DNA from: an uncultured Desulfobacter sp.
GTDB lineage: Bacteria; Desulfobacterota; Desulfobacteria; Desulfobacterales; Desulfobacteraceae
Direction of reading: 5' to 3'
Length of the DNA stretch: 64,000 bases
NCBI GenBank assembly: GCA_963665095.1
Contig: OY762069.1
Location: 4,352,001 to 4,416,000, forward strand
The notes beneath the pieces are model-generated. The model was given only the letters and a program-made list of their open reading frames with translations. It searched no databases and was not told the DNA's origin. Position 1 is the first letter of the stretch. Every line of letters begins with the position of its first letter. The translations under genes were made by a program, and so were the position numbers. Of the stretch, positions 19,099 through 43,742 are shown piece by piece.

Positions 19099-19101
<3 letters not shown>

Positions 19102-19252
19102 TGTTTGAACGAAAAGTCACCCACCTGCGGCGTTGCTGCACAAAGCTGCAATCCTCACGTACTTTAGTACGCTCCGGTTGCAGCTTTGCTTGCGCCTTGC
19201 ATCTGGGCAACTTTTCGTCCAAACACCCCAAACGGGGTTTTCGTTCAGACTA
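19099..19252. repeat. Structured dispersed repeat/MITE, copy A
   Basis: TAGTGTTTGAACGAAAA...TTTTCGTTCAGACTA; core homologous to the copies at 28.9, 29.8, 37.9 and 43.6 kb; overlaps the PFOR TAG stop. Confidence 0.9.
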
Positions 19253-19306
19253 TCGATAACAGACCGCCGGTTTTCCGGCAGTCGCTCTCACCGACATGAC
19301 AGATAT

Positions 19307-19346
19307 AAAGGGGTGGTGCATGGTTGCACTACCCCTTTTATTTTTT
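19307..19346 (+). terminator. Intrinsic terminator of PFOR
   Basis: AAAGGGGTGGTGCA-TGGT-TGCACTACCCCTTT followed by a T run. Confidence 0.75.
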
Positions 19347-19446
19347 GTGAAAAGGCCTGCAACGGCGAGATTAACTGCTTGATCCGAAAGTTTGCTCATG
19401 TTAAACTTTTTTTCATTTTATTAAAAAACCAGCAGGAAAAACGCCG

Positions 19447-20055
19447 ATGCCCCCACGCATGGAAGTCAAAGTCAAAGAGGAAGTGGCCGCCCTGAATCTG
19501 GGTAACAAAATCAGAAACCTTCGGAAACAAAGGGCGCTGACCCTTCAGGAGGTTTCGGAGTTGACAGGGCTTTCCAAACCGTTGCTCTCCCAGATTGAAA
19601 ATAATATTGCGGCCCCTCCCATTGCCACCCTGATTAAAATTTCCACAGCTTTAGGGGTAAAAATCTCCCACTTTTTCCAGGACCAGAACATGGATGACCG
19701 TATCGTGGTGGTCAGACAAGAGGACAGGTACAGTGTTAAAAAACTGTTCCACCACAAGGAAGAATCCCAGGTGGGGTACCGGTGGGAATCCCTGGCCTAT
19801 CCCATGGTGGGGAAACAGATGGAGCCCTTTGTTGTAGAGATCCAGCCCCGGGAGGAGGAAGACCTGCTGTATAACGACCACCAGGGAGAAGAGTTTCATT
19901 TTATTCTGGACGGCATTGTGGAATTCCGGACTGCTGACCAGATTCACCGTCTTAATAAGGGAGACAGCCTTTATTTTGACTCCAGCATCCCCCATGCCCT
20001 TCGGGGAATCGACGGCAGGGCCACCTCCCTGATCGTAATTTTTACCCCGAAATAG
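19447..20055 (+). CDS. XRE HTH + cupin transcriptional regulator
   Basis: IRNLRKQRALTLQEVSELTGLSKPLLSQIE; cupin HQGEEF...GDSLYFDSSIPH. Confidence 0.9.
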   Translation: MPPRMEVKVKEEVAALNLGNKIRNLRKQRALTLQEVSELTGLSKPLLSQIENNIAAPPIATLIKISTALGVKISHFFQDQNMDDRIVVVRQEDRYSVKKLFHHKEESQVGYRWESLAYPMVGKQMEPFVVEIQPREEEDLLYNDHQGEEFHFILDGIVEFRTADQIHRLNKGDSLYFDSSIPHALRGIDGRATSLIVIFTPK

Positions 20056-20075
20056 TCCCCAACCAGAGCAAAAAC

Positions 20076-21782
20076 ATGAAAAAATATATTTTACTCATTA
20101 TTTCCGCATGCATTATTTTGCCCTATGTGGCTGCAGCACAATCAGATCCATCCCAGGCACTGCCCGGGGAGATTATGGAAACCCAGGCATCAGAGGCCCC
20201 GGAACAACAGGTAAATACAACCGGCATTCCCCAAAATACCATTGAAATGCTCAAATCCATTGTCCGACTGAAAAACACCTTAAGACAGCGTATGGATGAA
20301 AAAAAGCTGGCCATGGACAGAGCCGGTTCCGAAACCGAAAAAAAATATCTGGAAGCAGAACTGGCTAACCTGGATAAGCAGATGGCAGACGCTGTCTCAG
20401 ATTTTGAACAGATTGCCACAGGCGTGGACACCGGCTTGTTTATTGCCAAAAAAAATGAGCGGTTTGACTGGAAAGAGGAAGTTCTTTCCCTGGCCGAACC
20501 CGGTATTATGGAGCTTAAACGCCTCACTGTCAAAGCCAGGCACAAATCAAAACTAAATGATGAGCTGGACAGTTACGAAGAACTGCTTCCCGTGGCAGTT
20601 AAGGCCAGAGCCCGCATTGAGGACCTGGTTTCCCGGGCTGAAGACCCGGTTCTGGTATCATCTTTAAAAGACCTTTTGCCTGAATACAAAGGGATTGAAA
20701 GTCAGATCAAAAACAAGGCAGACCTGATCCGCATGCAGCTTAACGAAATTAAGCGGGAAGAGGCATCAGTCATAGACAGCACCCAGAGCTCTGTTAAAAA
20801 ATTTTTCAAGACACGGGGGCTGTATCTGGTTTTTGCCGTTCTGGCCTGCTTTGGCGTGGTACTGATCCTCAAATTTCTCTACCAGAGCCTGATCCGTCTT
20901 GTTCCCGGATACAAGCTTGCATACAGGCCGTTCCATATTCGATTGCTGGAGCTGATGTATCGGCTCATGATGCTTATACTGACCGTACTGGCAGTTATTG
21001 CGGTTTTTTATCTTGTTGAGGACTGGGTCCTGCTCTCGTTGGCCATTATCTTCATCATGGGAGTGGTCTGGGCTGCCAAGCACACCCTTCCGGTGTATAT
21101 GGAGCAAAGTCGGCTGATGCTCAACATCGGGCCCGTCAGAGAAGGCGAACGAATGATTTACCAGGGTGTGCCCTGGCTGGTTAAGCATATCAATTTCTAT
21201 TCCCTGCTGGAAAATCCCACCCTTGGGATTACCCTCAGGGTACCCATTTCAGAGCTGATGGATAAAACATCCAGGTCATTTCATCCTGACGAACCCTGGT
21301 TTCCGTGCCGGAAAAATGACTGGGTGATCCTGTCTGACGGCACAAGGGGCGGCGTGACCCAGATGACCCATGACACCGTGGAACTGGTTTTAAGGGGGGG
21401 CGCAAAAAAAACATATCAGACAGCAGACTTTCTGGGCATGAATCCCTTGAACCTGTCAGTGAACTTCAGGCTGAAGGTGCCTTTCGGCATTGGTTACGGG
21501 CACCAGAAAGATGCCACAACGGCTATACCGGACCTGTTGTCCGCCTTTATCCGGGAACAGATTGAAAAAGAAGGATATGCCGAAGAACTGCTCAACCTGC
21601 GGGTGGAATTTGCCGAAGCCGGGGCGTCATCTTTGGATCTTGTGGTGATCGCAGATTTCAAAGGCAGTCAGGCGCCCATATACAACCGTTTGAATCGCAG
21701 CATTCAAAGATGGTGTGTGGATGCCGCGACCCGTCACGGCTGGGATATTCCCTTTCCACAGGTTACGGTCCATCAGGCCTGA
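20076..21782 (+). CDS. MscS-family mechanosensitive channel protein with periplasmic coiled coil
   Basis: Signal peptide, coiled coil, three TMs, C-terminal GWDIPFPQ motif. Confidence 0.7.
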   Translation: MKKYILLIISACIILPYVAAAQSDPSQALPGEIMETQASEAPEQQVNTTGIPQNTIEMLKSIVRLKNTLRQRMDEKKLAMDRAGSETEKKYLEAELANLDKQMADAVSDFEQIATGVDTGLFIAKKNERFDWKEEVLSLAEPGIMELKRLTVKARHKSKLNDELDSYEELLPVAVKARARIEDLVSRAEDPVLVSSLKDLLPEYKGIESQIKNKADLIRMQLNEIKREEASVIDSTQSSVKKFFKTRGLYLVFAVLACFGVVLILKFLYQSLIRLVPGYKLAYRPFHIRLLELMYRLMMLILTVLAVIAVFYLVEDWVLLSLAIIFIMGVVWAAKHTLPVYMEQSRLMLNIGPVREGERMIYQGVPWLVKHINFYSLLENPTLGITLRVPISELMDKTSRSFHPDEPWFPCRKNDWVILSDGTRGGVTQMTHDTVELVLRGGAKKTYQTADFLGMNPLNLSVNFRLKVPFGIGYGHQKDATTAIPDLLSAFIREQIEKEGYAEELLNLRVEFAEAGASSLDLVVIADFKGSQAPIYNRLNRSIQRWCVDAATRHGWDIPFPQVTVHQA

Positions 21783-22243
21783 TCCGGCTCAACGCTCTGG
21801 ATCATGTCAGAAATTTTGTCAACATGGGCCATCTCCTCCCGGACGATCCTGTTCAGCCCCTGTTTAACGGTTTCCGATTCTACAAAGGCTTCCAGAAACT
21901 GGTAAAACAGGATCGTGTCTTTTTCAAACATAAGGAAGATCCTGAGCATCTGGACCGGTGTGGAGACAGTGGAAAAATCCACGTCGTTCAGGGAAAGAGA
22001 GTTCTCTCCCATCATCTCCTTTAAAACACCGGGAAGCTGGACTGTCAGATCGCCGTCACTTGCAGACAGATTTTTTTTCTGCTGCAGAAACCACCGCCGG
22101 TGGCGATCTTCCTCATCCGCCATCCACTCAAGAAGCTCAGCCGCTGCTTTGCTCTTTACCGAATCAAGTGCGTTAAGATAAGTGACCCGGCCATTTTCTT
22201 CCATTTTTGCCGCAATATCAAACAGGTCGTTGAGGGTAAACAT
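21773..22243 (-). CDS. Ferritin/rubrerythrin-like di-iron protein
   Basis: MEENG..Y, EEDRH, EKDTILFY and EEMAH motifs. Confidence 0.8.
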   Translation of the reverse strand: MFTLNDLFDIAAKMEENGRVTYLNALDSVKSKAAAELLEWMADEEDRHRRWFLQQKKNLSASDGDLTVQLPGVLKEMMGENSLSLNDVDFSTVSTPVQMLRIFLMFEKDTILFYQFLEAFVESETVKQGLNRIVREEMAHVDKISDMIQSVEPDQA

Positions 22244-22454
22244 AAAAATTTCCTTTCTTTATTCCGGGTCATACCATATCGAATTTCAGCGTAAAAGGCT
22301 ACCAACAAGCTGTTTTAAAAGGTTGATCTTGATTTATCACCTCAAAACCCCTATACATTTTATAGAATGTTTAAACACGGGTTTTCATTCAGACACGATA
22401 TAACATACCGAATAGTGAGATGATCATTCATAAGCCGTTATGGCATGATCCGTT

Positions 22455-24620
22455 ATGGAAAATATTTTTGACAAAATAAAAAAATCCGGCCCCCTTCCCC
22501 AACTGCCCCAGGTCATGGTCCAGCTGATCCGGGCCTGCGGCAGTGACAGTACCAATGTTGATGAGCTGACAAGAATTATCTCTTCAGATGCCGGACTGAC
22601 AACCAGGCTGATTTCAATCATGTCATCGGCGTATCTGAACCTTGCCTCAAAACAGGTCGACACCATAAAATCCGCAGTCATGTATCTCGGGCTGGATACC
22701 ATCCGGAATATCGCTATCAGTTCCTCAGCCATGCAGTTTTTCAGCACGCCCCAAAAGGCTGCCGGGTTCGACCTCGACCGGTTCTGGTACCAGTCCTACA
22801 AATGCGCGGTACTGGCCCAGCAGATCGCCATTGAGGAAAACCAGGTCAATCCGGATGAATTTTTTCTGGCAGGACTGCTCCATGATATCGGCAGCCTTGT
22901 ACTCATGAATACCTTTCCCAAAGAGTATGAATCGGTTTTAAAAGACATTCACCAGGGAAAAGATCTATTTGAAGCGCAAACAAAAGTTTTCAATATTGAC
23001 AGCCCCAGGGTCAGTGCCTGGCTGTTTAATCAGTGGCACCTGAACCCGGTCACCTCTGATTCGGTCCAGTTCTTAAACCAGCCCCTTGAACGGATTCAGG
23101 AAGAGCTGCCCCATGTGAAAATCCTTTACATGGCAAGGACCATGGCCAGTGCTCAAAACGCGGACCACGCCTCTGTTCCCTTTGAAACAATGCTGACGCT
23201 GACGGATCTGCCTGAATTTCGTCTGGAAAAAATAGTTTCCCAGGCAGAAAAAGAGGTCCGGAAAATGGCAGGCAGCCTGAGCCTGAATTTAAACAAAAGC
23301 AGCAACGCAGACGCCGGCTTGAATCAGAATCAGGAAGACGATGCGCTTCTGGCCGGCGGGATTAAGGATTTTTCCCTGTTTTTTGGCACGCTTGACAGTC
23401 TGCTCAAGGCCAGGGATCTGACGGCTGTACTGGAGACTGTTCACCGGGGCCTGGAGATCATTTTTAATATTCCCCGGATCTTTTTCTTTCTCATGGACAA
23501 AGATAAGGATCTTTTGACAGGCGCCTGTATCAAAGAGGACCGCTACCACAACATAGTCAGAAGCATGGCCCTTGCCATGGACAGCCGGGCCAGCCTGGTG
23601 GTAAAGGCCGTATACACCTGCACCGTCCAGTCCAGTACCGGCCGTAATGACCTTGCCGTCCCTGATACACAGATTCTGCGTTTCCTTGAGACCCCTGCTT
23701 TCTACGCCATCCCCATTGCAGGGCGTGACCGGAGCCTGGGCGCCATTGTACTGGGCGTGGACAGCACAATGGCCAGAACACTGGACGAGAACAAGGGGAT
23801 TGTGGACCTGTTCTCCAGGCAGACCGGCATCTGCCTGGAGAATATTGACTTTCACCAGGCGTATGCCAGAGATCTGAATGATAAAAAAATGGAGGCCTAT
23901 GCCTCCCTCACAGACAAGGTCGTTCACGAAATCAACAACCCCATTGCCATTATCCGAAATTACCTGGAGTCCCTAAAACTCAAGCTGCCGGACAAGCACC
24001 CGGCCCAGGAGGAACTCATGGTGGTGGGAGAAGAGATGATCCGGGTATCATCACTGCTGGAAGGGCTGACCTCATTTTCAAAGCCCAAGATCGGGGGACT
24101 TGAAACCATTGACCTCAATCAGGTATGCCGGCGCGTGCTGGAGGTGTTGAAAAAATCCATGCTCCTGCCCAGACAGATTCAGATACAGGCCGACCTGGAT
24201 CCGGACATATCGTCTGCCGTTATGGACAGCAACGGATTAAAACAGGTGATTATCAACCTGGTTAAAAACGCTGCGGAAGCCCTGGGAAAAGGAGGGGAAA
24301 TTGTGTTTACAACCCGGCTTCTGCCAGGCTCCACAAAAGTACTTATAGACAAAAAAAAGAAAATTCCGGGATTTGTACAAATTACCATAAAGGACAATGG
24401 TCCGGGAATCCCTGCAAAGATCAGGGAGCGGCTTTTCGAGCCCTACAACTCCGGCAAGGAGAGCAGCACAAACTCAGGCTTAGGCCTTGCCATTGTTCAC
24501 TCCATTGTCAAAGAAATGCAGGGGCGCATTACCTGCGACAGCCGGCAGGGGCAAGGTACCTCTTTTACCGTTCTTCTTCCTCTGGCCCCTGGCAGCGTTC
24601 GCACCAGCCCCCGAAGATGA
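22455..24620 (+). CDS. HDOD-GAF-histidine kinase
   Basis: LPQLP..., AGLLHDIG (HDOD); HEINNP H-box; NLVKNA, DNGPG and GLGL boxes. Confidence 0.88.
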   Translation: MENIFDKIKKSGPLPQLPQVMVQLIRACGSDSTNVDELTRIISSDAGLTTRLISIMSSAYLNLASKQVDTIKSAVMYLGLDTIRNIAISSSAMQFFSTPQKAAGFDLDRFWYQSYKCAVLAQQIAIEENQVNPDEFFLAGLLHDIGSLVLMNTFPKEYESVLKDIHQGKDLFEAQTKVFNIDSPRVSAWLFNQWHLNPVTSDSVQFLNQPLERIQEELPHVKILYMARTMASAQNADHASVPFETMLTLTDLPEFRLEKIVSQAEKEVRKMAGSLSLNLNKSSNADAGLNQNQEDDALLAGGIKDFSLFFGTLDSLLKARDLTAVLETVHRGLEIIFNIPRIFFFLMDKDKDLLTGACIKEDRYHNIVRSMALAMDSRASLVVKAVYTCTVQSSTGRNDLAVPDTQILRFLETPAFYAIPIAGRDRSLGAIVLGVDSTMARTLDENKGIVDLFSRQTGICLENIDFHQAYARDLNDKKMEAYASLTDKVVHEINNPIAIIRNYLESLKLKLPDKHPAQEELMVVGEEMIRVSSLLEGLTSFSKPKIGGLETIDLNQVCRRVLEVLKKSMLLPRQIQIQADLDPDISSAVMDSNGLKQVIINLVKNAAEALGKGGEIVFTTRLLPGSTKVLIDKKKKIPGFVQITIKDNGPGIPAKIRERLFEPYNSGKESSTNSGLGLAIVHSIVKEMQGRITCDSRQGQGTSFTVLLPLAPGSVRTSPRR

Positions 24621-24630
24621 GGTCAAACGC

Positions 24631-25638
24631 ATGATAAAAAGCGGAGAAATTATGATTGAACAAGGCCTGGTTACGCCTGGTAACGTAGACATGGCCCTGT
24701 CCATCCAGAAAAAAAACAGAGATAAATCTGTTGACGGCCGTACCCTTTTTCTGGGTATGATCCTGTGTAAACTCAATCTGATCACACCTGTGGAAAACTA
24801 TTATGTGCTGAAAAAGCATGATAAACTTGTCTCCATTATTACACGGCTGTCTGAAAAAAGAATTGTTTCCGACACACGGCTCAAAGAGATCAGGGCTGAA
24901 GCTGAAAACCAGACGATTCCTTTCATCTCCCACCTTCTTGAAAAACAGGTATTGTCAAAGGCCCAGCTCCAGGAGGTCCTTTTTGAGCTGTTTGGTATTC
25001 CTTCAAGATCTGTCTCCGACATTGCCTTTGATGAGCTGAACAAAAAACAGCTGGCCGCCATCATAGACCGGGAACAGGCCCTAAAATACGGACTGATTCC
25101 TCTACAGCTCTCCGGCAACACCTTAACCATAGGCATTACGGACCCCGATGGCCTGATTTTTATACGCAACCTGGACCAGCGCTTTCCCCAGTACAGATTT
25201 TATCCGGTATTTATCCCCTATCCCGGTTTTAAATGGTTTTATCCCATCCTCTACCCCGGGGACCAGGCCATTGCAAAAAAACCGGCAGGGTTCTCCCCCC
25301 CTGAAAAAAAGGAAGTCAAAGACAAAACAAAAGAATCCGCCAGCGTTGAACCCGTGCCTGAAACCATCCGTGACCCACGAATGGAAATGCATGCAGTGGC
25401 ACGGCTGTTCAAACAATATGAACGGCTGCGTCTTGGGCATGACAGCCAGAACAACCATGAGGCGTACAGCCAGCGCATGACCCAGTTCGCAGACTTTATC
25501 TGTGACAGTTATGACGAAATAACCCGCCAGTACGGTTGCCGCAGCATTCAGTTTTTTGCCCATAAAAAGGACGGCAGGACCATGGTGATGGCCAAGCCTG
25601 CCGATGGAAGTCAAAAGGGAAAGGACAGATTCATATGA
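24631..25638 (+). CDS. Stand-alone MshEN/GspE N-terminal domain protein (no ATPase)
   Basis: KSGEIMIEQGLVT...ALSIQ, FLGMIL, and ALKYGLIPL...LTIGITDP; ATG 24631 after a GAGG RBS. Confidence 0.7.
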   Translation: MIKSGEIMIEQGLVTPGNVDMALSIQKKNRDKSVDGRTLFLGMILCKLNLITPVENYYVLKKHDKLVSIITRLSEKRIVSDTRLKEIRAEAENQTIPFISHLLEKQVLSKAQLQEVLFELFGIPSRSVSDIAFDELNKKQLAAIIDREQALKYGLIPLQLSGNTLTIGITDPDGLIFIRNLDQRFPQYRFYPVFIPYPGFKWFYPILYPGDQAIAKKPAGFSPPEKKEVKDKTKESASVEPVPETIRDPRMEMHAVARLFKQYERLRLGHDSQNNHEAYSQRMTQFADFICDSYDEITRQYGCRSIQFFAHKKDGRTMVMAKPADGSQKGKDRFI

Positions 25639-26852
25639 CAAAGGTGCTTACCATTGCTTCGGGAAAAGGCGGGGCCGGAAAAACCAGTATCAGCCTGAAC
25701 CTGTCTCTGGCCCTGGCAAGTATAGGCTACCGGGTCTGCCTGTTTGATGCCGACCTGGGCCTTGCCAATGTAAATATTCTCACCGGATTTTATCCGGAGC
25801 ATGGCCTGGCAGAGGTGCTGGAAGGCAGTCACACCCTGTCGGACATCATGATCCGCAATTTCAACGGCATTGATATTATTCCGGGAAGTTCCGGTGTTGA
25901 AAAACTGGCCGATCTGACCAGCTCAGAAGCCGGGGGATTAATCCACGCGTTTCTGGATCTTCCCGATTATGACTACTTTATTCTGGACACCTCTGCAGGT
26001 ATTTCGTCGCAGGTTCTCTCCTTTTGCCGGGCATCCCAGGAAATGGTCCTGGTGGTCACGCCGGAGCCGACATCCCTGACCGATGCCTATTCCCTGCTCA
26101 AGGTACTGTCAAAAAAGGGTGCCATGCCCAGAATCCGGGTAGTGGTCAATCAGGTTCGCAAGGCAGATGAGGCCAGGAGATCCTATGCAAAACTTAAAAA
26201 AACTGCGGGACGTTTTTTGTCTGTGGACCTGGCACCCCTTGGCATTGTGGCCCGGGACCCCAATGTCTCCAATGCCGTTATCACCCAGGTGCCCTTCCTT
26301 ATACAGTATCCGGATACCCAGGCTTCCAGGTGTATCCGCTCCCTGGTTCTCAAGCTGATCAAGGCCCCGGGCCAGGATATGCCCATTGAAGCGTTCTGGG
26401 ACCAGTGCCTGGAGCTGTTAGGCGGGAAGCCGCCCCAGATTCAGGCAAAGGGGCAAAATATGCCATTTCCCGGAGCCAATGAAAAGGAAGATGCAGACCG
26501 AACCGCTGATAAAGTCAGCCAGCCCAGCGCTGTAACTGCAGCGGAGAATACCGGCGAGGCAACCGCACGCAGGCTGTCTGAAATCGAAGAAAAACTGGAC
26601 CGGCTGCTGCAGGAAATGGCAGATCTGAAGAAGATGGTCAGCAAACCGGAACAGCTGCGCCAGGAGCCGGAGCAGGTCACATCACAGCCGGAAATGCAGC
26701 CCTCACAGCCGGATCAGCCCCTTGATCCGTTTTTCCCAACGCCTGAGGTGCCGTCACCGGAGCCGGCACCCCTGGTTCATGATCAGATTCATGATCCCAA
26801 TGAACCGGAACCGGTAGCCCTGGATTTTGAGGCCTGGCTCGCTGCGCAATAA
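25635..26852 (+). CDS. FlhG/FleN-like MinD/ParA ATPase with C-terminal extension
   Basis: SGKGGAGKT, DADLGLANV, DTSAGIS and TPEPTSLTDAY; ATGA overlap with the upstream gene. Confidence 0.85.
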   Translation: MTKVLTIASGKGGAGKTSISLNLSLALASIGYRVCLFDADLGLANVNILTGFYPEHGLAEVLEGSHTLSDIMIRNFNGIDIIPGSSGVEKLADLTSSEAGGLIHAFLDLPDYDYFILDTSAGISSQVLSFCRASQEMVLVVTPEPTSLTDAYSLLKVLSKKGAMPRIRVVVNQVRKADEARRSYAKLKKTAGRFLSVDLAPLGIVARDPNVSNAVITQVPFLIQYPDTQASRCIRSLVLKLIKAPGQDMPIEAFWDQCLELLGGKPPQIQAKGQNMPFPGANEKEDADRTADKVSQPSAVTAAENTGEATARRLSEIEEKLDRLLQEMADLKKMVSKPEQLRQEPEQVTSQPEMQPSQPDQPLDPFFPTPEVPSPEPAPLVHDQIHDPNEPEPVALDFEAWLAAQ

Positions 26853-26854
26853 AT

Positions 26855-28018: not shown

Positions 28019-28204
28019 AGTGGGTATAATATATTCAGATCCGATTTTTGTATATGAATAATGGCGCTAATTTTTTTACACTTGCAACACAGAAAAACTG
28101 GTTTTAAGTTAGACAGAATTTTTACCGGCAGATTTAATATGTTTATCCGCCAACACCAGCCAGGCATTTGGGAACAATGCCTGTGGCAAGGAATATATAC
28201 CCGC

Positions 28205-28831: not shown

Positions 28832-28903
28832 TCCCGGACTGAACTATGACATAGCCCTCCCGACGCTCAGATTTTTTTGCATATTAAATTGTTACGTTAT
28901 GGT

Positions 28904-29046
28904 GTGTTTGGATAAAAACTTGCCCAGATGCAAGGCGCAAGCAAAGCTGAGACCGGAGCGTACTTTAGTACGTGAGGCCCGATTATATGATTTGGCAGCT
29001 TTGTGCAGCAACGCCGCAGGTGGGTAAGTTTTTATTCAAACACTTA
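28904..29046. repeat. Structured dispersed repeat/MITE, copy B
   Basis: GTGTTTGGATAAAAACTTGCCCAGATGCAAGGCGCAA...GGGTAAGTTTTTATTCAAACAC; abuts the TAA of the gene at 29044. Confidence 0.9.
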
Positions 29047-29595
29047 TTTGAAGCTTCTGGCGAACAGGTCTTCCAGGGCAGCGGCCGCATCCTCAGTAAG
29101 ATTACGCGTACCCGTTCCCGCAAAGGTCTTATGATGAATCACCGGCGTAACCATCTGCCAGTCATTACCCACCCAGGAAAACCAGGCCTTTCTGTCCTGT
29201 TCATACACAAACACAGGCCGGTTGAACAGCTTGCCCAGCTCCACGCCCCACCCGGTACCGCCTTTAACGGTTTTATCCGGCAGAATCCAGCCCACGGCAA
29301 ACACCTGGTATCCATTATTCACCATATGAAAAATGGATTGGATGACCTTTCTGATTTTGTTGCCTTTGGAAAAGGATCTTCCCAGACGGGTAGAAACAAT
29401 ATCCATTGAGATATTCCCCTTTTCAAGGGCCTCCTGATTCAGGACGGTAACCCCGGTATCCCTGTCAATGGTATGGCCCTCAAAAGAAAAATTAACCTCC
29501 TTGACCCCATACTTTTCCGCAAGTTTTCCAAACTCAGCTTCGGCACCTCTGTGTCCCCCGCTGTAAAGTGTAAACTGGGACGGATCATTATTCAT
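29044..29595 (-). CDS. Hypothetical protein, SLOG/MoCo-carrier-like Rossmannoid fold
   Basis: LYSGGHRGAE and KGGTGWGVE motifs resemble SLOG-family glycine motifs; ATG 29595 with AGGAG RBS. Confidence 0.6.
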   Translation of the reverse strand: MNNDPSQFTLYSGGHRGAEAEFGKLAEKYGVKEVNFSFEGHTIDRDTGVTVLNQEALEKGNISMDIVSTRLGRSFSKGNKIRKVIQSIFHMVNNGYQVFAVGWILPDKTVKGGTGWGVELGKLFNRPVFVYEQDRKAWFSWVGNDWQMVTPVIHHKTFAGTGTRNLTEDAAAALEDLFARSFK

Positions 29596-29761
29596 CTTAT
29601 TCACTCCTTTAAATTAAATGGTCACCAACTTAAAAAACCTTTTATAGATTCTTATGCTTAATTGAATGTGGCTCTGATAGAAAATTGACGCTTCATCGTA
29701 TTAAAAAGATCTAAAATAAGCAAGTTCCAACACGTGTCAAGGCAGGGATAATAATTAATTC

Positions 29762-29976
29762 GTGTTTGGACAGCTCCAGCTCCACAGAGAAACCCCGTGT
29801 TTGGTGCTTGGTGTTTGGACAAAAAGTTGCCCAGATGCAAGGCGCAAGCAAAGCTGCAACCTTAAGCGTACTTCAGTACGTGAGGCCCGATTATATGATT
29901 TGGCAGCTTTGTGCAGCAACGCCGCAAGTAAATGATTTTTTGAGCTGAAGCTCCTCTTCGAGCCGTTCAAACACTA
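29762..29976. repeat. Structured dispersed repeat/MITE, copy C (with internal insertions)
   Basis: Same core as A, B and D; ends GTTCAAACACTA; overlaps the TAG of the restored diguanylate cyclase frame. Confidence 0.85.
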
Positions 29977-30977
29977 ATTATCTGTCAGAAAACTGGTCGA
30001 TTTAAAGCAATTACGGCCTGAATCCTTTGCCCGGTAAAGCGCTTCATCAGCAGCCTTGATAAGCACGGTGGGAAGGGTGTTCTGGGCCGGAACCATGTGG
30101 CCACCCCCACACTGATGGTAACATGGTCGGCAGTGCGGGATGACTCATGGGGAACATCCAGATCCGAAACTGCATCCAGCATTCGAACAGCAATGTTTTC
30201 CCCTCCCGAAACATTGGTATCCGGCAGAATCGCCCCAAACTCTTCCCCTCCGTAACGTGCGATGTTGTCCACATCCCGCAGAATGGATTTTCCCAGCGCC
30301 CTTGCTACCCTTCTGAGACAGTCGTCCCCGGCGACATGACCGTAGGTGTCATTAAAGGCTTTAAAGTGATCAATATCAGCGATAATCAGGGTTACAGGGG
30401 TCTTCTGACGCAATCCCCGTTGCCACTCCCTGTCCATGGCTTCATCAAAAAACCGCCGGTTCAGAAGACCGGTCAATCCGTCCTGGGAAGAGAGCTGGAC
30501 AAGCAGATCATTAGACTTCTCAAGTTCCTGCTTTACCGCTTCCAACTCAGCAACTTTGGCATCCAGTTCCTTTGTTTTCTGTTCAAGCAGGCAGCGCTGA
30601 AGATGAAGCTCAAGAAAAATCTTTACCTTGGATGTCAGCACATCCGGGGCAATGGGTTTAAACAGATAATCCACGGCACCGGAGCCGTATCCCCTGAACA
30701 CATGGGCGTCCTCTTTATTTGCAGCGGTGATAAAAATAATGGGAATGTTTTTGGTCCGGCTGTTGCCGCGAAGCAGGGTGGCGGTCTCATAACCGTCCAT
30801 CTCCGGCATCTGAACATCCAAAAGAATCAGGGCAAATTCATAATCAAGGTTTTTTTCCAGGGCTTCCTGTCCGGAACCTGCCCGGATAATATCCAGTTCA
30901 GGAGACTCAAGCAGCTGCTCAAGGGATAAAAGATTCTCCGGCCGGTCATCAACGATCAGAATACAGGGGTTTGCCAT
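29974..30977 (-). pseudogene. REC-GGDEF diguanylate cyclase with a 1-bp frameshift near 30097 (pseudogene or sequencing error)
   Basis: REC plus RYGGEEF; after SVGVAT the conserved tail MVPAQNTLPTVLIKAADEALYRAKDSGRN lies in another frame and ends at TAG 29974. Confidence 0.8.
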
Positions 30978-31134
30978 TTACACCTACTTTTCTTTTGCCG
31001 CTGCCGCTGGCAGACAGTGTATCATTTTCATAGCCCGGAACACATGTATCGATGAATTTTGTTAAGGATTCTTTTACCCTGAGCCCGGATGGTTTGTAAA
31101 GTATTGAATAAAAAACCTGTTTCAAAGCTGCCTG

Positions 31135-35205: not shown

Positions 35206-35417
35206 GAACAGCTCCTTTTCAGAGTTCAATTTGCGCACCGACGAAGATCACAACATTACCTTTGGCTGGAACATATCACAATATTTTCCGTTAATTCAAT
35301 GATGACGGGCAGGCTTTTAATTAAAAAATTCCTGGTGTGGATTGCGAAATAAAATGATTTGTCAGACAGGTAGTCCCAAACGCCGGGGTAACGTTATGAT
35401 AACTGCGGATAAAATAT

Positions 35418-37574: not shown

Positions 37575-37925
37575 TTTAGGAAGGGTTAATTTTTGGGACG
37601 ACTGTGGGAATCAACCTGACAGAACACAACATAAATAAAGCATTAGAATACAAACCTGTTCTTCTGCCGCCACACTGTCCGGAAAAAATTCACTTAAAAT
37701 TTTAACCGGCAAACACAGAAATACATTTAAACTATTTACAATTAGAGATGAAAAACCGCTGCTTTGTCAACTAAAATTATCACATGCCATAGATTTGAAC
37801 TTGATTGATCTTTTCTTTCCCCAATTTAAAAAAACCTTTCTTAGGAGGTGGCCACCCGGGAAGATCTAACTTAAAACTTAGATTACAAATATAACTCATC
37901 ATGATAGAGTGTACAGATAAGTAAT

Positions 37926-38081
37926 TAGTGCCTGAACAAAAAACCCGTGTTTGGTGTTTGGACGCAAAGTTGCCCAGATGCAAGGCGCAAGCAAAGCTGC
38001 AACCGGAGCGTACTTCAGTACGTGAGGATTGCAGCTTTGTGCAGCAACGCCGCAGATGGGTGACTTTGCGTTCAAACACTA
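37926..38081. repeat. Structured dispersed repeat/MITE, copy D
   Basis: TAGTGCCTGAACAAAA...CTTTGCGTTCAAACACTA; near reverse complement of copy A; 40 nt upstream of the dikinase start. Confidence 0.9.
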
Positions 38082-38121
38082 ATTAAACCGCTTCAAATCA
38101 TTAAGAGAGGATCTGTTTTAA

Positions 38122-41100
38122 GTGAAATCCAAAGCCCTTGAAGTCAACCTTTCCGATACTCGGGCAGACGTTGCCATTGATGAACGGTACCAGCTGCTTG
38201 TCTCCTTTTTTAAAGGGTATGTAGGTATTGTCAACCGGCTGGAAACCTTTCTAAAGGAGCTGTCCCACCCCTACCGGAACTGGGGATTTATTGTCAGTGA
38301 AGCCCGGCACTTCTCCCTGCACTATTTTCACCTGTACAGCACCGAAACAGACGGGCGCCGTGCCCTGGAACTGTTCTGCGATATTTTTACCGCAGCGTTT
38401 GAATCTGTGAATGACCCTGAAATTAAGACCAATGCGGCAGATAACCTCATGCTGGTTTTGCATACCATTGCAAAGGCCGGAGAAGACGGTTTAACTGTGT
38501 TTAAACCGACAATGATCAAGGAGGTAGAAAGGATCTGCCGGTTTGAGGATCCTGATTTTTTCTATTTTGTCTGCGCCTATTACCAGCCCGACAGCCTGGT
38601 AAAACAGATGGCGGCAAAAGAAGTTTCTCTGACAGATAAAGAACTGCTGCCCTGCCTGAACACCTTTTTAATTCGCTATTTTGACACCTCTTTCTCCTTC
38701 TGGCTTGCCCAGGACGATCCGTTAGCGTGGATGAAAGATAATATCAATGACTGGCGCTTAAGTTCAGACATGCTGGCACTTTTAGACCAGGTTTCCCACA
38801 CCCGGATCAGTAACCAGCAGCAACAGCTGGAACAGATCAGGGCCCTGCCGGATGACGCAAAAAAAACCACTGCCCTGACAGCGCTTACCGGTCACAGGGA
38901 GTTTATTAAAAAATTCAGAGATATGCCCCGGCAGATTCTCAATCTGGCCCGGAAACAGACCTCAGGGAAGTTTTTTAAACTGACTTTTCTGTTTTACATT
39001 ATCCATGCTCCGGGACTCTCCATTATCCACAGGGAAGCGCTGGGGGATATCCACCGGACACTGATCACGCTGATCGGTGAACAGGATTATAAAAAAGATA
39101 TGGCCATTGTGGACCAGACCTTTGCCCTTCTCAAGGAGCATAAGGGACGGTATCCGGCCACCGTACTGGAAGTGATCCATAAAATCGGGGATGCTGTTTA
39201 CAATACCGATGAAATTGAATCCATCAACCACTTCATTGACCGGTCCGTGGACCATGGTTTCCAGTTTCCCGATATCCGGGGGACAGGAGAGGACTGGCAG
39301 ATCAAGTGCAATGTGGCCCATGTCAAAAATATCCGGGTCTTTCTCACCCTGGTGGGCAGGCACCCCAAAAAGTCCAAGCGCCTGCTCTCCGCTCTGATAA
39401 CCTCCCTTGCCGTGGGGGGCGTGTTCATCCGGGATACGGACCTGTTTCCACGGGATATTACCCGGTTCTTAAATGCAGATATTGCCCCGGTATATAACCT
39501 GGTTAAACAGCTGGCACGCCTTCTGCCGGCATTCTTTAATGAAATCGGCGCAGAAGGTGAGCTCAGGGATATTTCCACCCGGCTGGATGAGTCTGTATTC
39601 CGCCGGGACAAGCTGATCCATTTTCTTCGCAAGCAGTGCCATGTGGAAAGTTCCTCCAGGATTGTCGAATTTATCCGGGAGGTAATGATGTTCTGGAAAA
39701 CCCTGGATAAATCACCCCTTAAGCCGTACCTGCCGCCGTCAATTTATAATGCCACAGAAACCCGCGGCCGTTACATTGACGGCCCTCATGCTGTTTTCCA
39801 GGCCCTGGCCTACCGCAAGCTCGAAACCCCGGCAGATTTCCTGGCTGCATCCAGAGCAGACATCGACCAGATCATTGACAAGGTGGACAGTGCAGACGAC
39901 CTTGACAAGGAAAGGGCAAAACTGATCATCCGCTTCCACGCGCTTCTCAACGAGAAATACGGCATCGACAACCTGGATCTTGGCACCTATATCAAAGCCC
40001 ATATGGGCCAGGGCCTGCCCGACCCCAAAGATGTTATCCATGCCCTGGCAGAACCGGAGCTGGAAACCCGCATCGGAGGCCTTCTGGCCTATATGAACGA
40101 ACTCAAACAGATTATTTTATCCAAAGAGCAGTTTATGGTAAATGAATCCATCTACCACAAACGCCATATTGCCGTGGATATTCCATCCATGTACGGGTCT
40201 TACAGTGAGGCCAAATTTGATGCGCTAGGCATGACCTTAAGAATTGAAAGCGTGGTTAACGTCATGTTTGAAGACCTGATCAACAGCATTGACCTGCGGC
40301 TGATCACCAAGCCCACCTTTGTAAGGATCTTCTCCATATTAAAGCTGTTCCGCCAGGCCCTTGCCCTGGACGGCATTGTGTCCAACAAGCTGGATATCCA
40401 GATGGACTTTTTAAAATACGCCATCAACATCACCACCTGCTCCTTTACCCAGTATCTGGACATATTCAAGGGCTTTACAAGGGCTGTGGCAGACGCGGTG
40501 AACGATCACTTCAACAACCTGCACTCTTTAAACCTTGTCAACCTGGACAGCCGCATCGGCAGGGAAAATATCCTCGAAAAATTCCTGCCTGACGGATACA
40601 ATCCGGCAAAAACAGCCGCAGCCAATACCCCCGCATCCCGGAAAATGGCAAAAAAAATGGACCAGCGGGTGGCGGATATTTTTTTCAGGGACCGCATTGT
40701 CACATCCCTGGGACTTCAGCAGCTGGATGTATTCTTACATAAAATTTTGAATACACTGTTCCGCCAGTCCGAACGCCTCAGCCAGGATGAATTGTCCGCA
40801 CTTCTTAACTACGACCCCAAGGCAGCCGTCTCCACCATTGACGCCAGAGAGCTGTTCAGCCACAACATCATTTACCTGGGCAACAAGGGCTTGAACCTGA
40901 TCAAGCTCAAACAGATGGGAATCAAGGTGCCCAACGGGTTTATCATCACCACCGAGGTATTTAAATGTCTGGACCTCATTGACTCGTATATTCCGGCATC
41001 CGTGAACTTCCGCCAGCTTGTCTCCCATATGATTGAACAGCTTGAAGCAGTGGAAGGCGCCAAATTCGGCGATCCTGAGAATCCGCTGCTGCTGTCGGTA

Positions 41101-42351
41101 CGATCAGGCTCGTCCATCTCCCAGCCTGGTATGCTGGACTCTTTTTTAAATGTGGGCATCAACGAACAGATTGCCGCACGCATGGCCGAGACCAGCGGCA
41201 ACCCCTGGTTTGCCTGGGATTCCTACCGCAGGTTCATTCAGGCCTACGGCATGGTATTCGGTATCCAGAGAGACCGGTTTGACGCAATTATCAAGTCGTT
41301 CAAGGACAGGGCTGACATCCGGTTCAAGCGGTATTTTACAGGCGATCAGATGCGGGATGTGGCCATGGCCTACAAACAGCTGCTGGTGGATGAAGGCATT
41401 GAACTGATTGAAAATCCCATGGATCAGCTATTTTTATCCATTAAAAAAGTGTTTGCATCCTGGAACTCAAAACGGGCCATAAACTACAGAAAGATCATGG
41501 GAATCTCCCATGACTGGGGCACGGCAGTCACGGTGCAGGCCATGGTATTCGGAAACCGCTGCCGGGAATCCGGATCCGGAGTTATCTTCACCCACAGCCC
41601 CAAACTGCCCGGAGACACCATCCGGCTCTGGGGAGATTTTACCATTGGCAATCAGGGGGAAGATGTGGTATCGGGTTTGGTAAAAACCCTGCCCATTTCA
41701 GAACTTCAACGGGAACTGGAAGGCAGGGATGTAAAAATCAGCCTGGAAGAACGGTTTCCACAAGTGTATGAACAGTTGAAAACCATTGTCCAGCAGCTGA
41801 TCTACGATGGAGGCTGGAATCCCCAGGAGATGGAATTTACCTTCCAGGGACAGGCCCCCGAAGATGTATTTATTCTTCAGGCAAGAGATCTGTCTTTACG
41901 AGACAGAAAAAAAATCAAGCGGTTTGACGCTGCCCCCGACAGACTTGAAAAGGCCTGCCTGGGCCAGGGCATAGGGGTTTCCGGCGGCGCCATGAGCGGC
42001 AGAATCGTGTTCACCCTGGAAGAGATCGACGGATTCAGGCGACAGGATCCTGACGCCAAGCTTATCCTGCTTCGAAATGATACAGTGCCTGACGACATTC
42101 TCGAGATTGATGCGGCTGACGGTATTTTAACGGCCCGGGGAGGGCTTACTTCCCATGCGGCTGTGGTGGCATACAATCTTGATAAAACCTGTGTGGTCGG
42201 GTGCAAAAATCTGATCTGCAACGAAGAGGCAGGGATTTGCGAACTAAACGATGTAACAATGAACACAGGGGATTTCATCAGCATTGACGGACACAAAGGT
42301 CTTGTCTATCAGGGGCAGATGAAAATCAGTGACCATTTAACCTCAATTTGA
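38122..42351 (+). CDS. PPDK-like protein: ~900-aa N-terminal domain, ATP-grasp and phospho-His domain; no PEP/pyruvate TIM barrel
   Basis: LGNKG.NL, PLLLSVRSG, QAMVFGN, QGEDVVSG and GGLTSHAAVVA; protein ends right after ISIDGHKGLVYQG. Confidence 0.88.
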   Translation: MKSKALEVNLSDTRADVAIDERYQLLVSFFKGYVGIVNRLETFLKELSHPYRNWGFIVSEARHFSLHYFHLYSTETDGRRALELFCDIFTAAFESVNDPEIKTNAADNLMLVLHTIAKAGEDGLTVFKPTMIKEVERICRFEDPDFFYFVCAYYQPDSLVKQMAAKEVSLTDKELLPCLNTFLIRYFDTSFSFWLAQDDPLAWMKDNINDWRLSSDMLALLDQVSHTRISNQQQQLEQIRALPDDAKKTTALTALTGHREFIKKFRDMPRQILNLARKQTSGKFFKLTFLFYIIHAPGLSIIHREALGDIHRTLITLIGEQDYKKDMAIVDQTFALLKEHKGRYPATVLEVIHKIGDAVYNTDEIESINHFIDRSVDHGFQFPDIRGTGEDWQIKCNVAHVKNIRVFLTLVGRHPKKSKRLLSALITSLAVGGVFIRDTDLFPRDITRFLNADIAPVYNLVKQLARLLPAFFNEIGAEGELRDISTRLDESVFRRDKLIHFLRKQCHVESSSRIVEFIREVMMFWKTLDKSPLKPYLPPSIYNATETRGRYIDGPHAVFQALAYRKLETPADFLAASRADIDQIIDKVDSADDLDKERAKLIIRFHALLNEKYGIDNLDLGTYIKAHMGQGLPDPKDVIHALAEPELETRIGGLLAYMNELKQIILSKEQFMVNESIYHKRHIAVDIPSMYGSYSEAKFDALGMTLRIESVVNVMFEDLINSIDLRLITKPTFVRIFSILKLFRQALALDGIVSNKLDIQMDFLKYAINITTCSFTQYLDIFKGFTRAVADAVNDHFNNLHSLNLVNLDSRIGRENILEKFLPDGYNPAKTAAANTPASRKMAKKMDQRVADIFFRDRIVTSLGLQQLDVFLHKILNTLFRQSERLSQDELSALLNYDPKAAVSTIDARELFSHNIIYLGNKGLNLIKLKQMGIKVPNGFIITTEVFKCLDLIDSYIPASVNFRQLVSHMIEQLEAVEGAKFGDPENPLLLSVRSGSSISQPGMLDSFLNVGINEQIAARMAETSGNPWFAWDSYRRFIQAYGMVFGIQRDRFDAIIKSFKDRADIRFKRYFTGDQMRDVAMAYKQLLVDEGIELIENPMDQLFLSIKKVFASWNSKRAINYRKIMGISHDWGTAVTVQAMVFGNRCRESGSGVIFTHSPKLPGDTIRLWGDFTIGNQGEDVVSGLVKTLPISELQRELEGRDVKISLEERFPQVYEQLKTIVQQLIYDGGWNPQEMEFTFQGQAPEDVFILQARDLSLRDRKKIKRFDAAPDRLEKACLGQGIGVSGGAMSGRIVFTLEEIDGFRRQDPDAKLILLRNDTVPDDILEIDAADGILTARGGLTSHAAVVAYNLDKTCVVGCKNLICNEEAGICELNDVTMNTGDFISIDGHKGLVYQGQMKISDHLTSI

Positions 42352-42365
42352 AAGAAGGCAAAGAT

Positions 42366-43616
42366 ATGAGTAGTGACGCATCAAAGATCCTGGGCATTAA
42401 CGGACTTGGAAGAATTGGCAAACTGACCTTATGGCATCATGCCGGCAGAAAATTCTTTGATGAAATCGTCATCAACGTGGGCAGGGAAGTGGGAACCGGT
42501 ATGGACGATCTAATCCACTATATCGAACGGGACTCCTCCTATGGCCGCCTTGACGCATTTCTGCACGGATTTCAGGCCGAACCGGTGATCACAGATATTG
42601 ATCCTGACAGTGGCACGCTGAAAGTAAACGGGGTCAATATTAAAATTCTTCGGCAGCACCGTAACCCAAAGGATATTGAATGGGCACAGAACGGTGTGGA
42701 GCTTGTGGTGGACACAACGGGTCAGTTTCTGGACCCCAACCTCGGGGCCGAAGACCCCAAAGGCGCCATCCGGGGCCATCTGGAAGCCGGTGCCAGAAAA
42801 GTGGTTGCATCCGCCCCCTTTAAGATGAAACAGGGGGCCATGATGCCGGACGATGCCGTCACCACGGTTATGGGCATCAATGACAAGGATTATGACCCGG
42901 TCCGGCACTGTCTGATTTCCAATGCATCCTGCACCACCACCTGTCTGTCGCATATGGTCAAGCCGCTGCTGGATGCCTTTGGCCCGGAACGGGTTTTATC
43001 AGCCTCCATGGCCACGGTGCATGCGGCCACAGGATCCCAGCAGGTGCTGGACCGGCTGCCCAAGACCGGAAAAACAGATTTAAGAAAAAACCGGTCTATC
43101 ATGAATAACATTATTCTGACCACCACAGGTGCAGCCAAGGCATTGCAGCTGGTGATTCCTGAAATGGCAAGCATCGGATTCATTGCAGAGTCCGTTCGTA
43201 TTCCCACCTCCACAGGATCTTTGATCATTCTGGTCATTAATCTGCAGGAGGAGCTGGACAAACCGCCGGTGCGAAGGGAGCTGATCAACCAGATCTACCA
43301 GGACACCGCCAAAAGACAGACCAACGGCTACCTGGTCTTCACCAACAAACAGAATGTGTCATCGGACATCATCGGCACCCCCAGGGCCGCAGCGGTCATT
43401 GAAGGCCATGAAACCCATACCCGGACCGCATCCATTTCCATTAATCTTGGGCAGGTGCAGGGAATTGATAAAACGGTTCTTGAAAGCATTAAGGATCATG
43501 TGGGTTCCATCCAGGTAACCCAGGCGGTTATTTACGGCTGGTATGACAATGAGATGGCATCCTATGTGAATATGCTTGGCGACAGGACAGTAACAATCGC
43601 AGAATCCATGGACTAA
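42366..43616 (+). CDS. Atypical glyceraldehyde-3-phosphate dehydrogenase family protein
   Basis: GINGLGRIG, SNASCTTTCL, VHAATGSQ and GWYDNE; ~416 aa with insertions; start placed at ATG 42366. Confidence 0.85.
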   Translation: MSSDASKILGINGLGRIGKLTLWHHAGRKFFDEIVINVGREVGTGMDDLIHYIERDSSYGRLDAFLHGFQAEPVITDIDPDSGTLKVNGVNIKILRQHRNPKDIEWAQNGVELVVDTTGQFLDPNLGAEDPKGAIRGHLEAGARKVVASAPFKMKQGAMMPDDAVTTVMGINDKDYDPVRHCLISNASCTTTCLSHMVKPLLDAFGPERVLSASMATVHAATGSQQVLDRLPKTGKTDLRKNRSIMNNIILTTTGAAKALQLVIPEMASIGFIAESVRIPTSTGSLIILVINLQEELDKPPVRRELINQIYQDTAKRQTNGYLVFTNKQNVSSDIIGTPRAAAVIEGHETHTRTASISINLGQVQGIDKTVLESIKDHVGSIQVTQAVIYGWYDNEMASYVNMLGDRTVTIAESMD

Positions 43617-43742
43617 GTTTTTGGGCGAAAACTTACCCACCTGCGGCGTTGCTGCGGGAGTTTGTAATCCTCACAACCTGAAGGCTGCTCCGGTTACAAA
43701 CTCCCTTGCGCCTTGCATCTGGGCAAGTTTTCGCCCAAAAAC
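43617..43742. repeat. Structured dispersed repeat/MITE, copy E (divergent, covarying stems)
   Basis: GTTTTTGGGCGAAAACTTACCCAC...TGGGCAAGTTTTCGCCCAAAAAC, directly after the GAPDH-like TAA. Confidence 0.85.

Follow-up and report, generated by a model that had tools for sequence, protein, structure and literature searches.

A dispersed Desulfobacter repeat with ISNCY-type ends and an ERIC-like rod, probably a MITE moved in trans

Five repeats in a 64,000-nucleotide stretch of DNA from an uncultured Desulfobacter sp. (the window) belong to a dispersed family that, judged by its sequence, is a MITE rather than a stand-alone RNA gene. Our favoured reading, held with moderate confidence, is that of a gene-less, TA-flanked element with ISNCY ends, likely moved in trans, whose cargo is an ERIC-type rod with its predicted best fold opposite to the mRNA strand and likely a hairpin of single-stranded DNA. 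An ERIC-type core is here flanked by ends that fit an identifiable transposase, which makes mobilisation directly testable and bears on the movement of ERIC-type repeats and the conservation of their centre.

The five copies and their genomic family

The preliminary description had placed five copies, A to E, in the window, and a check of the sequence confirms their positions; a covariance-model scan of the window gave no sixth full copy, but the term five-copy family does not hold beyond it, as the genome carries about 80 to 100 copies. The stem sequences quoted for copies A, B, D and E were all found, GATGCAAGGCGCAA, GCAGCAACGCCGCA and TGAGG, claimed as invariant, are present in 5/5 copies, and CCGGAG is indeed kept in every copy except C. 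Copy D (37926-38081, plus strand) is a full 156-bp MITE with TA at each end, located between divergent genes and 40 nt upstream of a pyruvate phosphate dikinase-like gene. Its leader (37926-37953) carries TAGTGCCTGAAC-AAAA-CCC, which corresponds to the terminal repeat at the 3' end of ISNCY (NF033593) elements, and TAGTGTTTGAACG, as read inwards from the right end of the copy, fits their 5' terminal repeat. The 127-nt rod between them (37954-38080) consists of motif block I (37971-37990, pairing with 38041-38062), motif block II (38001-38009, pairing with 38022-38030) and a variable apex (38014-38017). Copy A (19099-19252, minus strand) is likewise a full MITE of 154 bp, with its rod at 19100-19226 and its leader and terminal repeat at 19227-19252; the pyruvate:ferredoxin oxidoreductase gene ends in the TAG at 19099-19101, whose TA was the insertion target, and the terminator-like hairpin of that gene falls downstream of the copy. 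Copy B (28904-29046, plus strand; 101 bits with the covariance model) is leaderless and belongs to a 141-nt subfamily with an additional CCCGATTATATGATTTGG segment, and the stop of a minus-strand ORF (29044-29604) adjoins its right end. Copy C (29762-29976, plus strand; 57 bits with the same model) is a composite with an intact core at 29811-29952 and its right arm swapped for a GAGCTGAAGCTCCTCTTCGAGCC hairpin module, 8 nt from the stop of a REC-GGDEF gene. Copy E (43616-43742, minus strand) is a leaderless rod adjoining the GAPDH stop codon, and relative to the consensus of the family 11 of its pairs are compensated, none is broken and the loops are unchanged. The site of copy A is unoccupied in 21/21 relatives, and those of copies D and E lack a copy in 5/5 relatives each. 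At 22369-22398 on the minus strand a left terminal repeat survives alone as a relic, with no rod attached.

In the whole Desulfobacter genome we find 98 loci, 78 of them strong (>45 bits), dispersed beside housekeeping genes in both orientations (53 plus, 45 minus), a distribution on which integron attC sites were rejected. The main forms measure 127-156 bp, full young copies being 148-156 bp, and the element contains no transposase gene. A recognisable leader is retained in 26 of the 78 strong copies; these start with TAGTGCCTGAACGAAAA and finish with TTTTCGTTCAAACACTA as terminal inverted repeats, and 14 of the 26 have TA at each end. That TA is a target duplication is seen at a site filled in genome G010, where G005 and G016 have a single TA. 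Among orthologous flanks, 11/58 (6 sites) are filled in the present genome (G000) too, and family-level matches of 118 and 128 bits occur in named Desulfobacter genomes; a strict family pattern gave no match in viral contigs. Among the joints listed for contigs of four near-identical sequencing runs, none excises an entire copy. Deletions within copies, running between short repeats, are frequent. Rods that bear a leader (n=13) are 96.5% identical to their nearest neighbours, those without it (n=36) 84.6%, the latter with 217 compensated versus 111 broken pairs, and the 127-base core appears to stay intact long after insertion.

Terminal repeats and a cognate transposon

The ISNCY NF033593 elements, with an IS5/IS1182-like DDE transposase, have the terminal repeats at either end in common with the MITE, as well as AT-rich targets flanked by TA. 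Two loci, L450 and L416, are 1.88-kb elements with the ends TAGTGTTTGAACGG(G/A)AAC and TAGTGTCTGAACGAAAACACC, and the 519-aa protein of L450 reaches 441 bits with NF033593, above its cut-off of 325; its relatives are found in 26 of 151 family genomes, five of those 26 being among the 24 genus genomes. Ends of the form TAGTG-YY-TGA-(A/C)-CG occur at many retrieved NF033593 loci, for example TAGTGTCTGAACGAAAACCCC at L505, and elements with matching ends were found in metagenome loci as well as in family and genus genomes. The MITE differs from them in that it has no transposase gene and carries a hairpin cargo. Since the ERIC-type core is absent from the autonomous elements (12 loci checked), it is dispensable for ISNCY movement, and the MITE is therefore not a simple internal deletion derivative. 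Judged by these ends, an ISNCY-family transposase likely mobilised the MITE in trans. In the present genome tblastn and an NF033593 profile search gave no NF033593 transposase. Other partners were likewise sought and rejected: pairing of end motifs in this genome yielded none, its 23 PF01609 matches all have other ends, PF05598 and PF13358 gave no match, and a long-repeat self-BLAST revealed no autonomous partner among the matches listed. Furthermore, 44 loci of IS630 (PF13358) and IS5 (PF13586) type in 25 genus genomes had no matching ends, and the ends of IS1182-type elements (PF13751) fit other MITEs of the superfamily, not the Desulfobacter family.

The preliminary description had also considered an HUH or RAYT substrate, and a REP/REPIN-like hairpin acted on by an HUH nuclease (RAYT or IS200/IS605) would accord with a strand-specific hairpin with bulges, with the five Y1 genes of the genome and with short copies devoid of the left terminal repeat. 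It is however hardly tenable, since the ends, together with the TA duplication, match DDE-type insertion sequences of the ISNCY group, since the Y1 genes are flanked by their own, different hairpins with no family repeat flanking any of the five, and since 140 ORFs flanking 80 cross-phylum loci included no Pfam family >2x among the best 25 of 148 families, although one transposase may be concealed among the others. One IS200 copy is inserted within a family-2 end.

The rod, its covariation and its change in place

The proposed fold into one rod on the strand of copy D holds for copies A, B, D and E, with predicted energies of -66 to -82 kcal/mol (z -7.9 to -12.1), but not for copy C, where the 136 nt folded (29810-29945) give z -0.84 and no full rod, the outer stem being missing because the right arm is replaced by the GAGCTGAAGCTCCTCTTCGAGCC module. 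In the four folding copies the D strand is 10-15 kcal/mol more stable than the other strand, which is likewise well folded (z -6.6 to -9.8), and with the 127-nt rod it is the better fold in 47/49 copies, both as RNA and as DNA. The covariation noted among the copies is borne out by 42 genomic copies, in which 95.1% of cells are paired and 32/51 pairs have changed on both sides, with a covariation score of 0.379 compared with 0.162 after shuffling and at most 0.079 for slid partners. A conserved tandem GA/GA loop had also been suspected, but we reject it for the Desulfobacter family, as GA/GA, which copy D does have, is the minority form (10/125 rods) and GA/GG is found in 78. Transversion mismatches are as frequent as G-U (60 and 83 cells), and the pairing constraint is therefore loose.

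Compensated changes do arise in place at orthologous sites. In 19 pairs of orthologous copies from the sister species G016 and G005, 36 base pairs have changed on both sides where 11.3 were expected, and 29 of these are still paired. Between the same genomes the motif blocks differ at 65/1123 positions (5.8%), the variable stems and apex at 122/948 (12.9%) and the upstream DNA at 176/1120, the apex being the most variable part (14.5%). Arm-to-arm copying accounts for part of the covariation; it is seen directly in copy L305, which has turned into a perfect outer palindrome, and inverted repeats in proteobacteria are corrected by template switching according to the accessible text of PMC5941160. 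The remaining covariation is likely due to selection on a one-strand fold. The slower change of the motif blocks could also be attributed to ectopic conversion among copies, several orthologous copies being nearer to a paralogue than to their own orthologue. Strong covariation in dispersed palindromes should thus be read with caution, since it can stem partly from arm-to-arm copying.

It may furthermore be argued that the family is nothing but passive, functionless MITE remnants, with covariation by template switching, motif blocks homogenised by ectopic conversion and loops kept by the purging of long perfect palindromes. The palindrome of L305, the copies resembling paralogues and the frequent internal deletions would agree with this, but such a history does not predict that G-U exceeds A-C on one of the strands, and the established, transcription-linked mutation bias towards C-to-T on the non-template strand would presumably act in the opposite direction; nor does it explain why one motif order recurs with unrelated transposon ends in different phyla. 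We therefore regard it as very improbable, and the suggestion that a fold specific to one strand, in which motif blocks are conserved, goes beyond a passive perfect palindrome is supported by the covariation, strand and divergence data alike.

The orientation of the copies relative to host genes is strongly skewed, since by crude ORF calls the genes at stop-adjacent copies read the A-C strand in 51 cases and the G-U strand in 4. That genes are read through the less-favoured strand speaks against a role of the favoured one as an mRNA structure, and it should be mentioned as a general caution that the best-folding strand of such repeats is not necessarily the mRNA strand. A function in host mRNA might instead reside in an interrupted stem-loop of the A-C strand, which as part of the 3'-UTR would tune transcript stability, and the other strand would fold better as a by-product. 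This would suit the reading of the A-C strand in 51/55 stop-adjacent copies, the location of copy A between a stop codon and a terminator-like hairpin, the good folding of that strand in copies A, B, D and E and the conservation of the motif blocks in place, and such a role is reported for ERIC in Yersinia; the accessible text of PMC2229807 describes RNase E effects of ERIC that depend on orientation. At Watson-Crick columns, however, G-U outnumbers A-C by 57:24 in G000 and by 90:21 in G016 and G005 together (cells that are not independent events), so that changes keeping the pairing of the mRNA strand are the rarer ones, the reverse of selection for an mRNA helix; counted in place only, the excess is 23:11 (p 0.058). 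In addition the insertion is missing at the orthologous genes of most relatives, and we find a role in host mRNA unlikely.

Transcription of the G-U strand into a small structured antisense RNA, acting in trans or as a mobility intermediate, would make sense of the strong strand-specific fold with its covariation and of a core conserved across phyla. We nonetheless consider it quite improbable, since the terminal repeats and TA duplication are those of a DNA transposon, the apex varies most and copy sites turn over between species. Rfam at the gathering threshold gave no match in the window (best E 5.9 around copy D), and a sigma-70 and terminator scan around copy D gave no promoter-like site inside it and no terminator-like site near it. 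The stand-alone ncRNA initially envisaged is likewise disfavoured by the terminal inverted repeats, the TA duplication, the empty sites in relatives and the fact that genes read the worse-folding strand.

We thus return to the ISNCY-ended MITE, whose history may be pictured as follows. The transposase would recognise both ends and insert the element at AT-rich TA sites, often at stop codons, where insertion would restore a TAG stop; the left terminal repeat would then decay, and most copies would therefore be immobile. Template switching would copy one arm onto the opposite arm, giving double substitutions in place, and selection or a fold-dependent repair bias would preserve the G-T wobbles of one strand together with its purine-rich loops. 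The working form at this last stage would tentatively be a protein-bound, extruded DNA hairpin, preferred since the G-U strand is the template strand in read-through. The orientation bias may in turn arise because the G-U strand in mRNA would form an unbroken helix of about 19 bp, an RNase III-sized target, versus about 9 bp for the A-C strand; the median lengths of the longest outer helix are 19 and 9 bp, respectively, and an RNase III gene is present in the genome. A sister family with symmetric ends has a weak orientation bias (7/15 vs 3/17). The replication strand shows no bias (34 vs 44 copies), leaving a lagging-strand hairpin without support.

Likeness to ERIC and other repeats

Whereas the repeat was at first not assignable to any named family, its core can be tied by resemblance to ERIC. 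Like the ERIC, IRU or RU-1 elements of Enterobacteriaceae and Vibrionaceae it has TA ends, forms a long rod and is often found 3' of genes; their size of about 127 nt is matched by the 127-nt rod, not by the full young copies of 148-156 bp. The ERIC consensus (PMC2759123, Table 1a) and the Desulfobacter rod have three motif blocks in common, namely GCAAGGCG(G)CAAG, GGAGC-TAC-N4-GTA-GTGA and GCAGC(C)AACGC, which follow one another in identical order with almost identical spacing. A covariance model built from the copies of this genome only scored 9/16 ERIC-type loci at 21-42 bits, full length and on the motif strand, whereas control hairpins did not exceed 18.8 bits; the ERIC loci had, however, been chosen by the inner motif, and that block is therefore common by selection. 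The motif strand is the better fold in the six ERIC-type copies folded. At the nhmmer level the family HMM has no similarity to 23 ERIC-type loci (best E 0.84), and the outer motifs are out of register in a plain MAFFT alignment but in register with the covariance model. The two differ in terminal repeats and stem sequences, the ERIC primer sequences being absent from the Desulfobacter element, as well as in host phylum and in that a cognate transposase is identifiable for the latter. Literature searches, with a minority of subscription papers covered, turned up neither an account of the Desulfobacter family nor one of ERIC-like cores beyond Gammaproteobacteria, and no cognate ISNCY transposase or in-place constraint for such cores.

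The rod core recurs, with its motif order, spacing and fold, in MITEs with unrelated ends in many phyla, and core and transposon shell therefore have separate histories. A wider notion, which we think possible but lean against, is that ERIC represents a single branch of a structured, strand-specific module that is pan-bacterial, carried in unrelated MITE shells (ISNCY, IS1182-type, TWA-duplicating) and selected past immobility because its folded anti-mRNA strand is read by a conserved factor, cellular or element-encoded. If so, the Desulfobacter family, with its identified transposase and with orthologous copies in different species, would offer a tractable model for the function of the ERIC core.

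Among other repeats, RUP (IS630-Spn1) and Correia/NEMIS are, in the accessible text of PMC2229807, likewise short and non-coding with terminal repeats, TA duplication and a long stem-loop, and their mobilisation in trans is inferred from shared ends; they differ in transposase family, and that text describes no core common to MITEs with unrelated ends. The bcr1 repeat of the Bacillus cereus group (PMC3184786, as far as accessible) is similarly dispersed at non-conserved positions with compensatory base changes, but forms a two-armed cruciform with 5-bp direct repeats in contrast to the single rod and TA duplication in Desulfobacter. Palindromic multicopy intergenic elements of related anaerobic bacteria include the multicopy sequences of Geobacter and the Chunjie MITE, the latter being different in that its direct repeats measure 9 bp and its terminal repeats 21 bp. 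According to the accessible parts of PMC2700814 and PMC2996986, one class of the Geobacter sequences resembles sequences found in many other genomes, and it is likened here by description only. Supplement files 1-12 of PMC2700814, in which alignments may be images, gave no match, and a related element may be present in the Figure S6 alignment of that paper.

Fold and covariation of the repeat copies

The five repeats A-E of the window lie where the preliminary description had placed them (19099-19252, 28904-29046, 29762-29976, 37926-38081 and 43617-43742), and the linkers that it quoted as invariant are indeed found in the sequence. The single long rod proposed for the orientation of copy D (the D strand) is formed by A, B, D and E, with -66 to -82 kcal/mol and z of -7.9 to -12.1, the opposite strand of these four folding 10-15 kcal/mol worse, but C has no outer stem over the stretch folded. 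Covarying stems are borne out by 42 copies (three of the window's own and 39 of the 40 that were fetched), in which 95.1% of the cells are paired and 32 of 51 pairs have changed on both sides, a level matched by no shuffle in a control that ignores relatedness. The preferred folding strand is likewise recovered in 47/49 copies with RNA and DNA parameters alike, and each of the five wobbles in the consensus is a G-U pair when read on the D strand, hence called the G-U strand, its opposite being the A-C strand. With the three terminal pairs and three family-variant columns excluded, G-U imperfections at Watson-Crick columns exceed A-C, as had been claimed, by 57:24 in 49 rods of the source genome and by 90:21 in 76 rods of the related genomes G016 and G005, transversion mismatches being about as frequent as G-U (60 and 83, respectively). 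The tandem G.A motif, suggested as a conserved feature, did not hold up, since GA/GA is found in only 10 of 125 rods, and scanning Rfam for the element gave no match.

Anatomy, distribution and candidate mobiliser

The source genome is a single contig of 6.9 Mb, here called C1, in which the window occupies positions 4352001-4416000. A BLAST search of the source genome with the element gave 112 clusters and an iterated HMM 98 element loci, 78 of them above 45 bits. The element was found in 16 of 18 sampled genomes of the same genus, family-level copies occurring also in named Desulfobacter genomes, and gave weak matches in 2 of 12 further genera of the same order. Young copies consist of a TA, a leader of 21-28 nt starting GTGCCTGAACGAAAA, the 127-nt rod and another TA. 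One copy in the related genome G010 occupies a site where G005 and G016 show a single TA, and sites D and E are each empty in 5/5 and site A in 21/21 relatives, whose genes share only about 80% identity with those of the source genome. The leader is retained in 13 of 49 standard-length rods, whose nearest neighbours are at 96.5% identity; the other 36 are at background for it in an ungapped test (with gapped remnants in some), have nearest neighbours averaging 84.6% identity and hold 217 compensated vs 111 broken pairs. Deletion derivatives of about 75 nt lacking the apical half occur in the source genome at C1 3959785, 4260354, 5145503 and elsewhere, several joined at a common TGCAA and with outer stems compensated on their own, and a divergent AT-rich rod at 5919751-5919878, scoring 53 bits with the model, was missed by the HMM.

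An autonomous partner was sought in the source genome and not found there. A leader-motif scan of metagenomes gave at least 125 stretches, and among the 132 matches listed the strict core follows in 20 and other DNA, often different hairpins, in 112. Two matches are elements of 1.88 kb; their 5' end corresponds to the right end of the repeat element, their 3' end to the repeat element's leader. The 519-aa protein of the fetched locus L450 is an ISNCY transposase (NF033593, 441 bits) with relatives in 26 of 151 genomes of the family and the same type of ends at many of their fetched loci; the core motifs are absent from 12/12 autonomous loci checked. Because the ends are shared, the ISNCY enzyme would move the element, an argument also used for RUP and IS630 in PMC2229807. 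The element is very probably a MITE, and with these ends in view an HUH substrate is hardly credible.

The same ISNCY-type ends surround a different GGCTCGAAGAGG hairpin at C1 770303, 1892827, 4643946 and 5254192, and one 48-bp shell with such ends in the source genome has no cargo. L421:2500-2646 and 16 similar loci carry a sister MITE of 145 bp, in which the ISNCY ends are nearly symmetric and the core has diverged (25-44 bits). At C1 4097821-4098153 a RAYT-like Y1 gene carries its own flanking inverted repeat GGGGTCAGAGTAAAAT.

Evolution in place and orientation

Copies fetched for 40 of 57 matches in G016 and 40 of 43 in G005 gave 19 orthologous pairs, whose flanks share 89-99% identity. 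Among their 171 stem differences 36 pairs have changed on both sides, as against 11.3 expected if independent, and 29 of these are still paired. Divergence is 5.8% in the motif blocks (defined from the source genome), 12.9% in variable stems and apex and 15.7% in upstream DNA. Six of the sites are filled in the source genome too, and at one site the left junction is common to three species and the stems have turned over. One orthologous copy is now a perfect outer palindrome, a signature of arm-to-arm copying, which PMC5941160 supports for proteobacterial inverted repeats, and several copies resemble a paralogue more closely than their orthologue, so that ectopic conversion may contribute to the in-place pattern. 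A passive remnant seems quite improbable. The best reading as a whole is probably an ISNCY-mobilised MITE with an ERIC-type cargo under one-strand constraint: the transposase would mobilise the MITE, and arm-to-arm copying together with the constraint would maintain the cargo.

By crude ORF-based gene calls a stop codon lies at the right end of 51-52 of 78 copies and at the left end of 4, and the read-through mRNA is therefore the A-C strand. The bias is 13:1 in leader-bearing and 38:3 in leaderless copies; 66 cross-phylum elements have it in the same direction and weaker (47/63 vs 30/63), the sister family shows 7/15 vs 3/17, and copies in the source genome have no replication-strand bias. 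On the G-U strand the longest outer helix without interruption measures 19 bp in the median, compared with 9 bp on the read-through strand; an RNase III gene is present in the source genome, and we infer that the bias reflects avoidance of RNase III cleavage. An mRNA-stability element would have the A-C strand, that of the read-through mRNA and the poorer fold, as its working form and is unlikely; a small RNA would come from the better-folding G-U strand, opposite to that mRNA, and is improbable. Within the mobilised-cargo reading, a hairpin formed by the template strand of the DNA is tentatively put forward as the most likely working form.

ERIC-type likeness and the wider superfamily

ERIC-type loci were picked out by an inner-core motif of ERIC. 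Three motif blocks are common to these copies and the rod, in the same order and spacing, and a model from copies of the source genome alone gives 21-42 bits to 9 of the 16 loci; the other 7 score below 18.8 bits, the maximum that control hairpins in 100 kb reach with the same model. As sequence-only similarity between rod and ERIC-type loci is absent, we can conclude that the element is ERIC-like in build and no ERIC member by sequence. ERIC primers and consensus are given in PMC6905247 and PMC2759123. MITEs, TA targeting and ERIC are already known, as are compensatory changes in dispersed repeats from bcr1 (PMC3184786); the locus adds the cognate transposase, a constraint acting in place at orthologous sites, and an ERIC comparison with controls. 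A literature search gave no description of the family; the Geobacter papers PMC2700814 and PMC2996986 describe multicopy elements, and excerpts of PMC10969869 mention no Desulfo- taxon.

A second MITE family of the source genome (C1 418279, 656193, 768584, 1324883, 2364707, 3229814 and 3376775) has the same core motifs, GGAC...GTCC ends and a 3-bp TWA (TAA/TTA) duplication, and a third core variant is also present; the core-motif search of the reversed genome as control gave none. The core pattern was found in at least 123 stretches of GTDB genomes, the 80 titles listed including NC10, Rokubacteria, Nitrospirae, Acidobacteria, Bacteroidales, Firmicutes, Gammaproteobacteria, Kuenenia and Chlamydiae. 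The stems of these cross-phylum cores vary freely, the motif strand folds better in 119/124 as RNA and 113/124 as DNA among the matches listed, and the ends of some elements match IS1182-type elements. Within the phylum the model matches at least 16 of 100 other genomes (34 candidates per genome scored). At C1 1324129-1324996 an IS200-type element is inserted in the end of a second-family copy, with a deleted copy of the element under study on its other side.

Near the copies of the window, four of four sequencing runs have an extra G behind position 30096, where the assembly has probably slipped by one base; the position is close to the 3' terminus of the minus-strand REC-GGDEF gene (29985-30977). 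A 1409-aa protein at 38122-42351, conserved in the genus and adjoining a long GAPDH, is pyruvate phosphate dikinase-like only in its C-terminal third, below the family cut-off.
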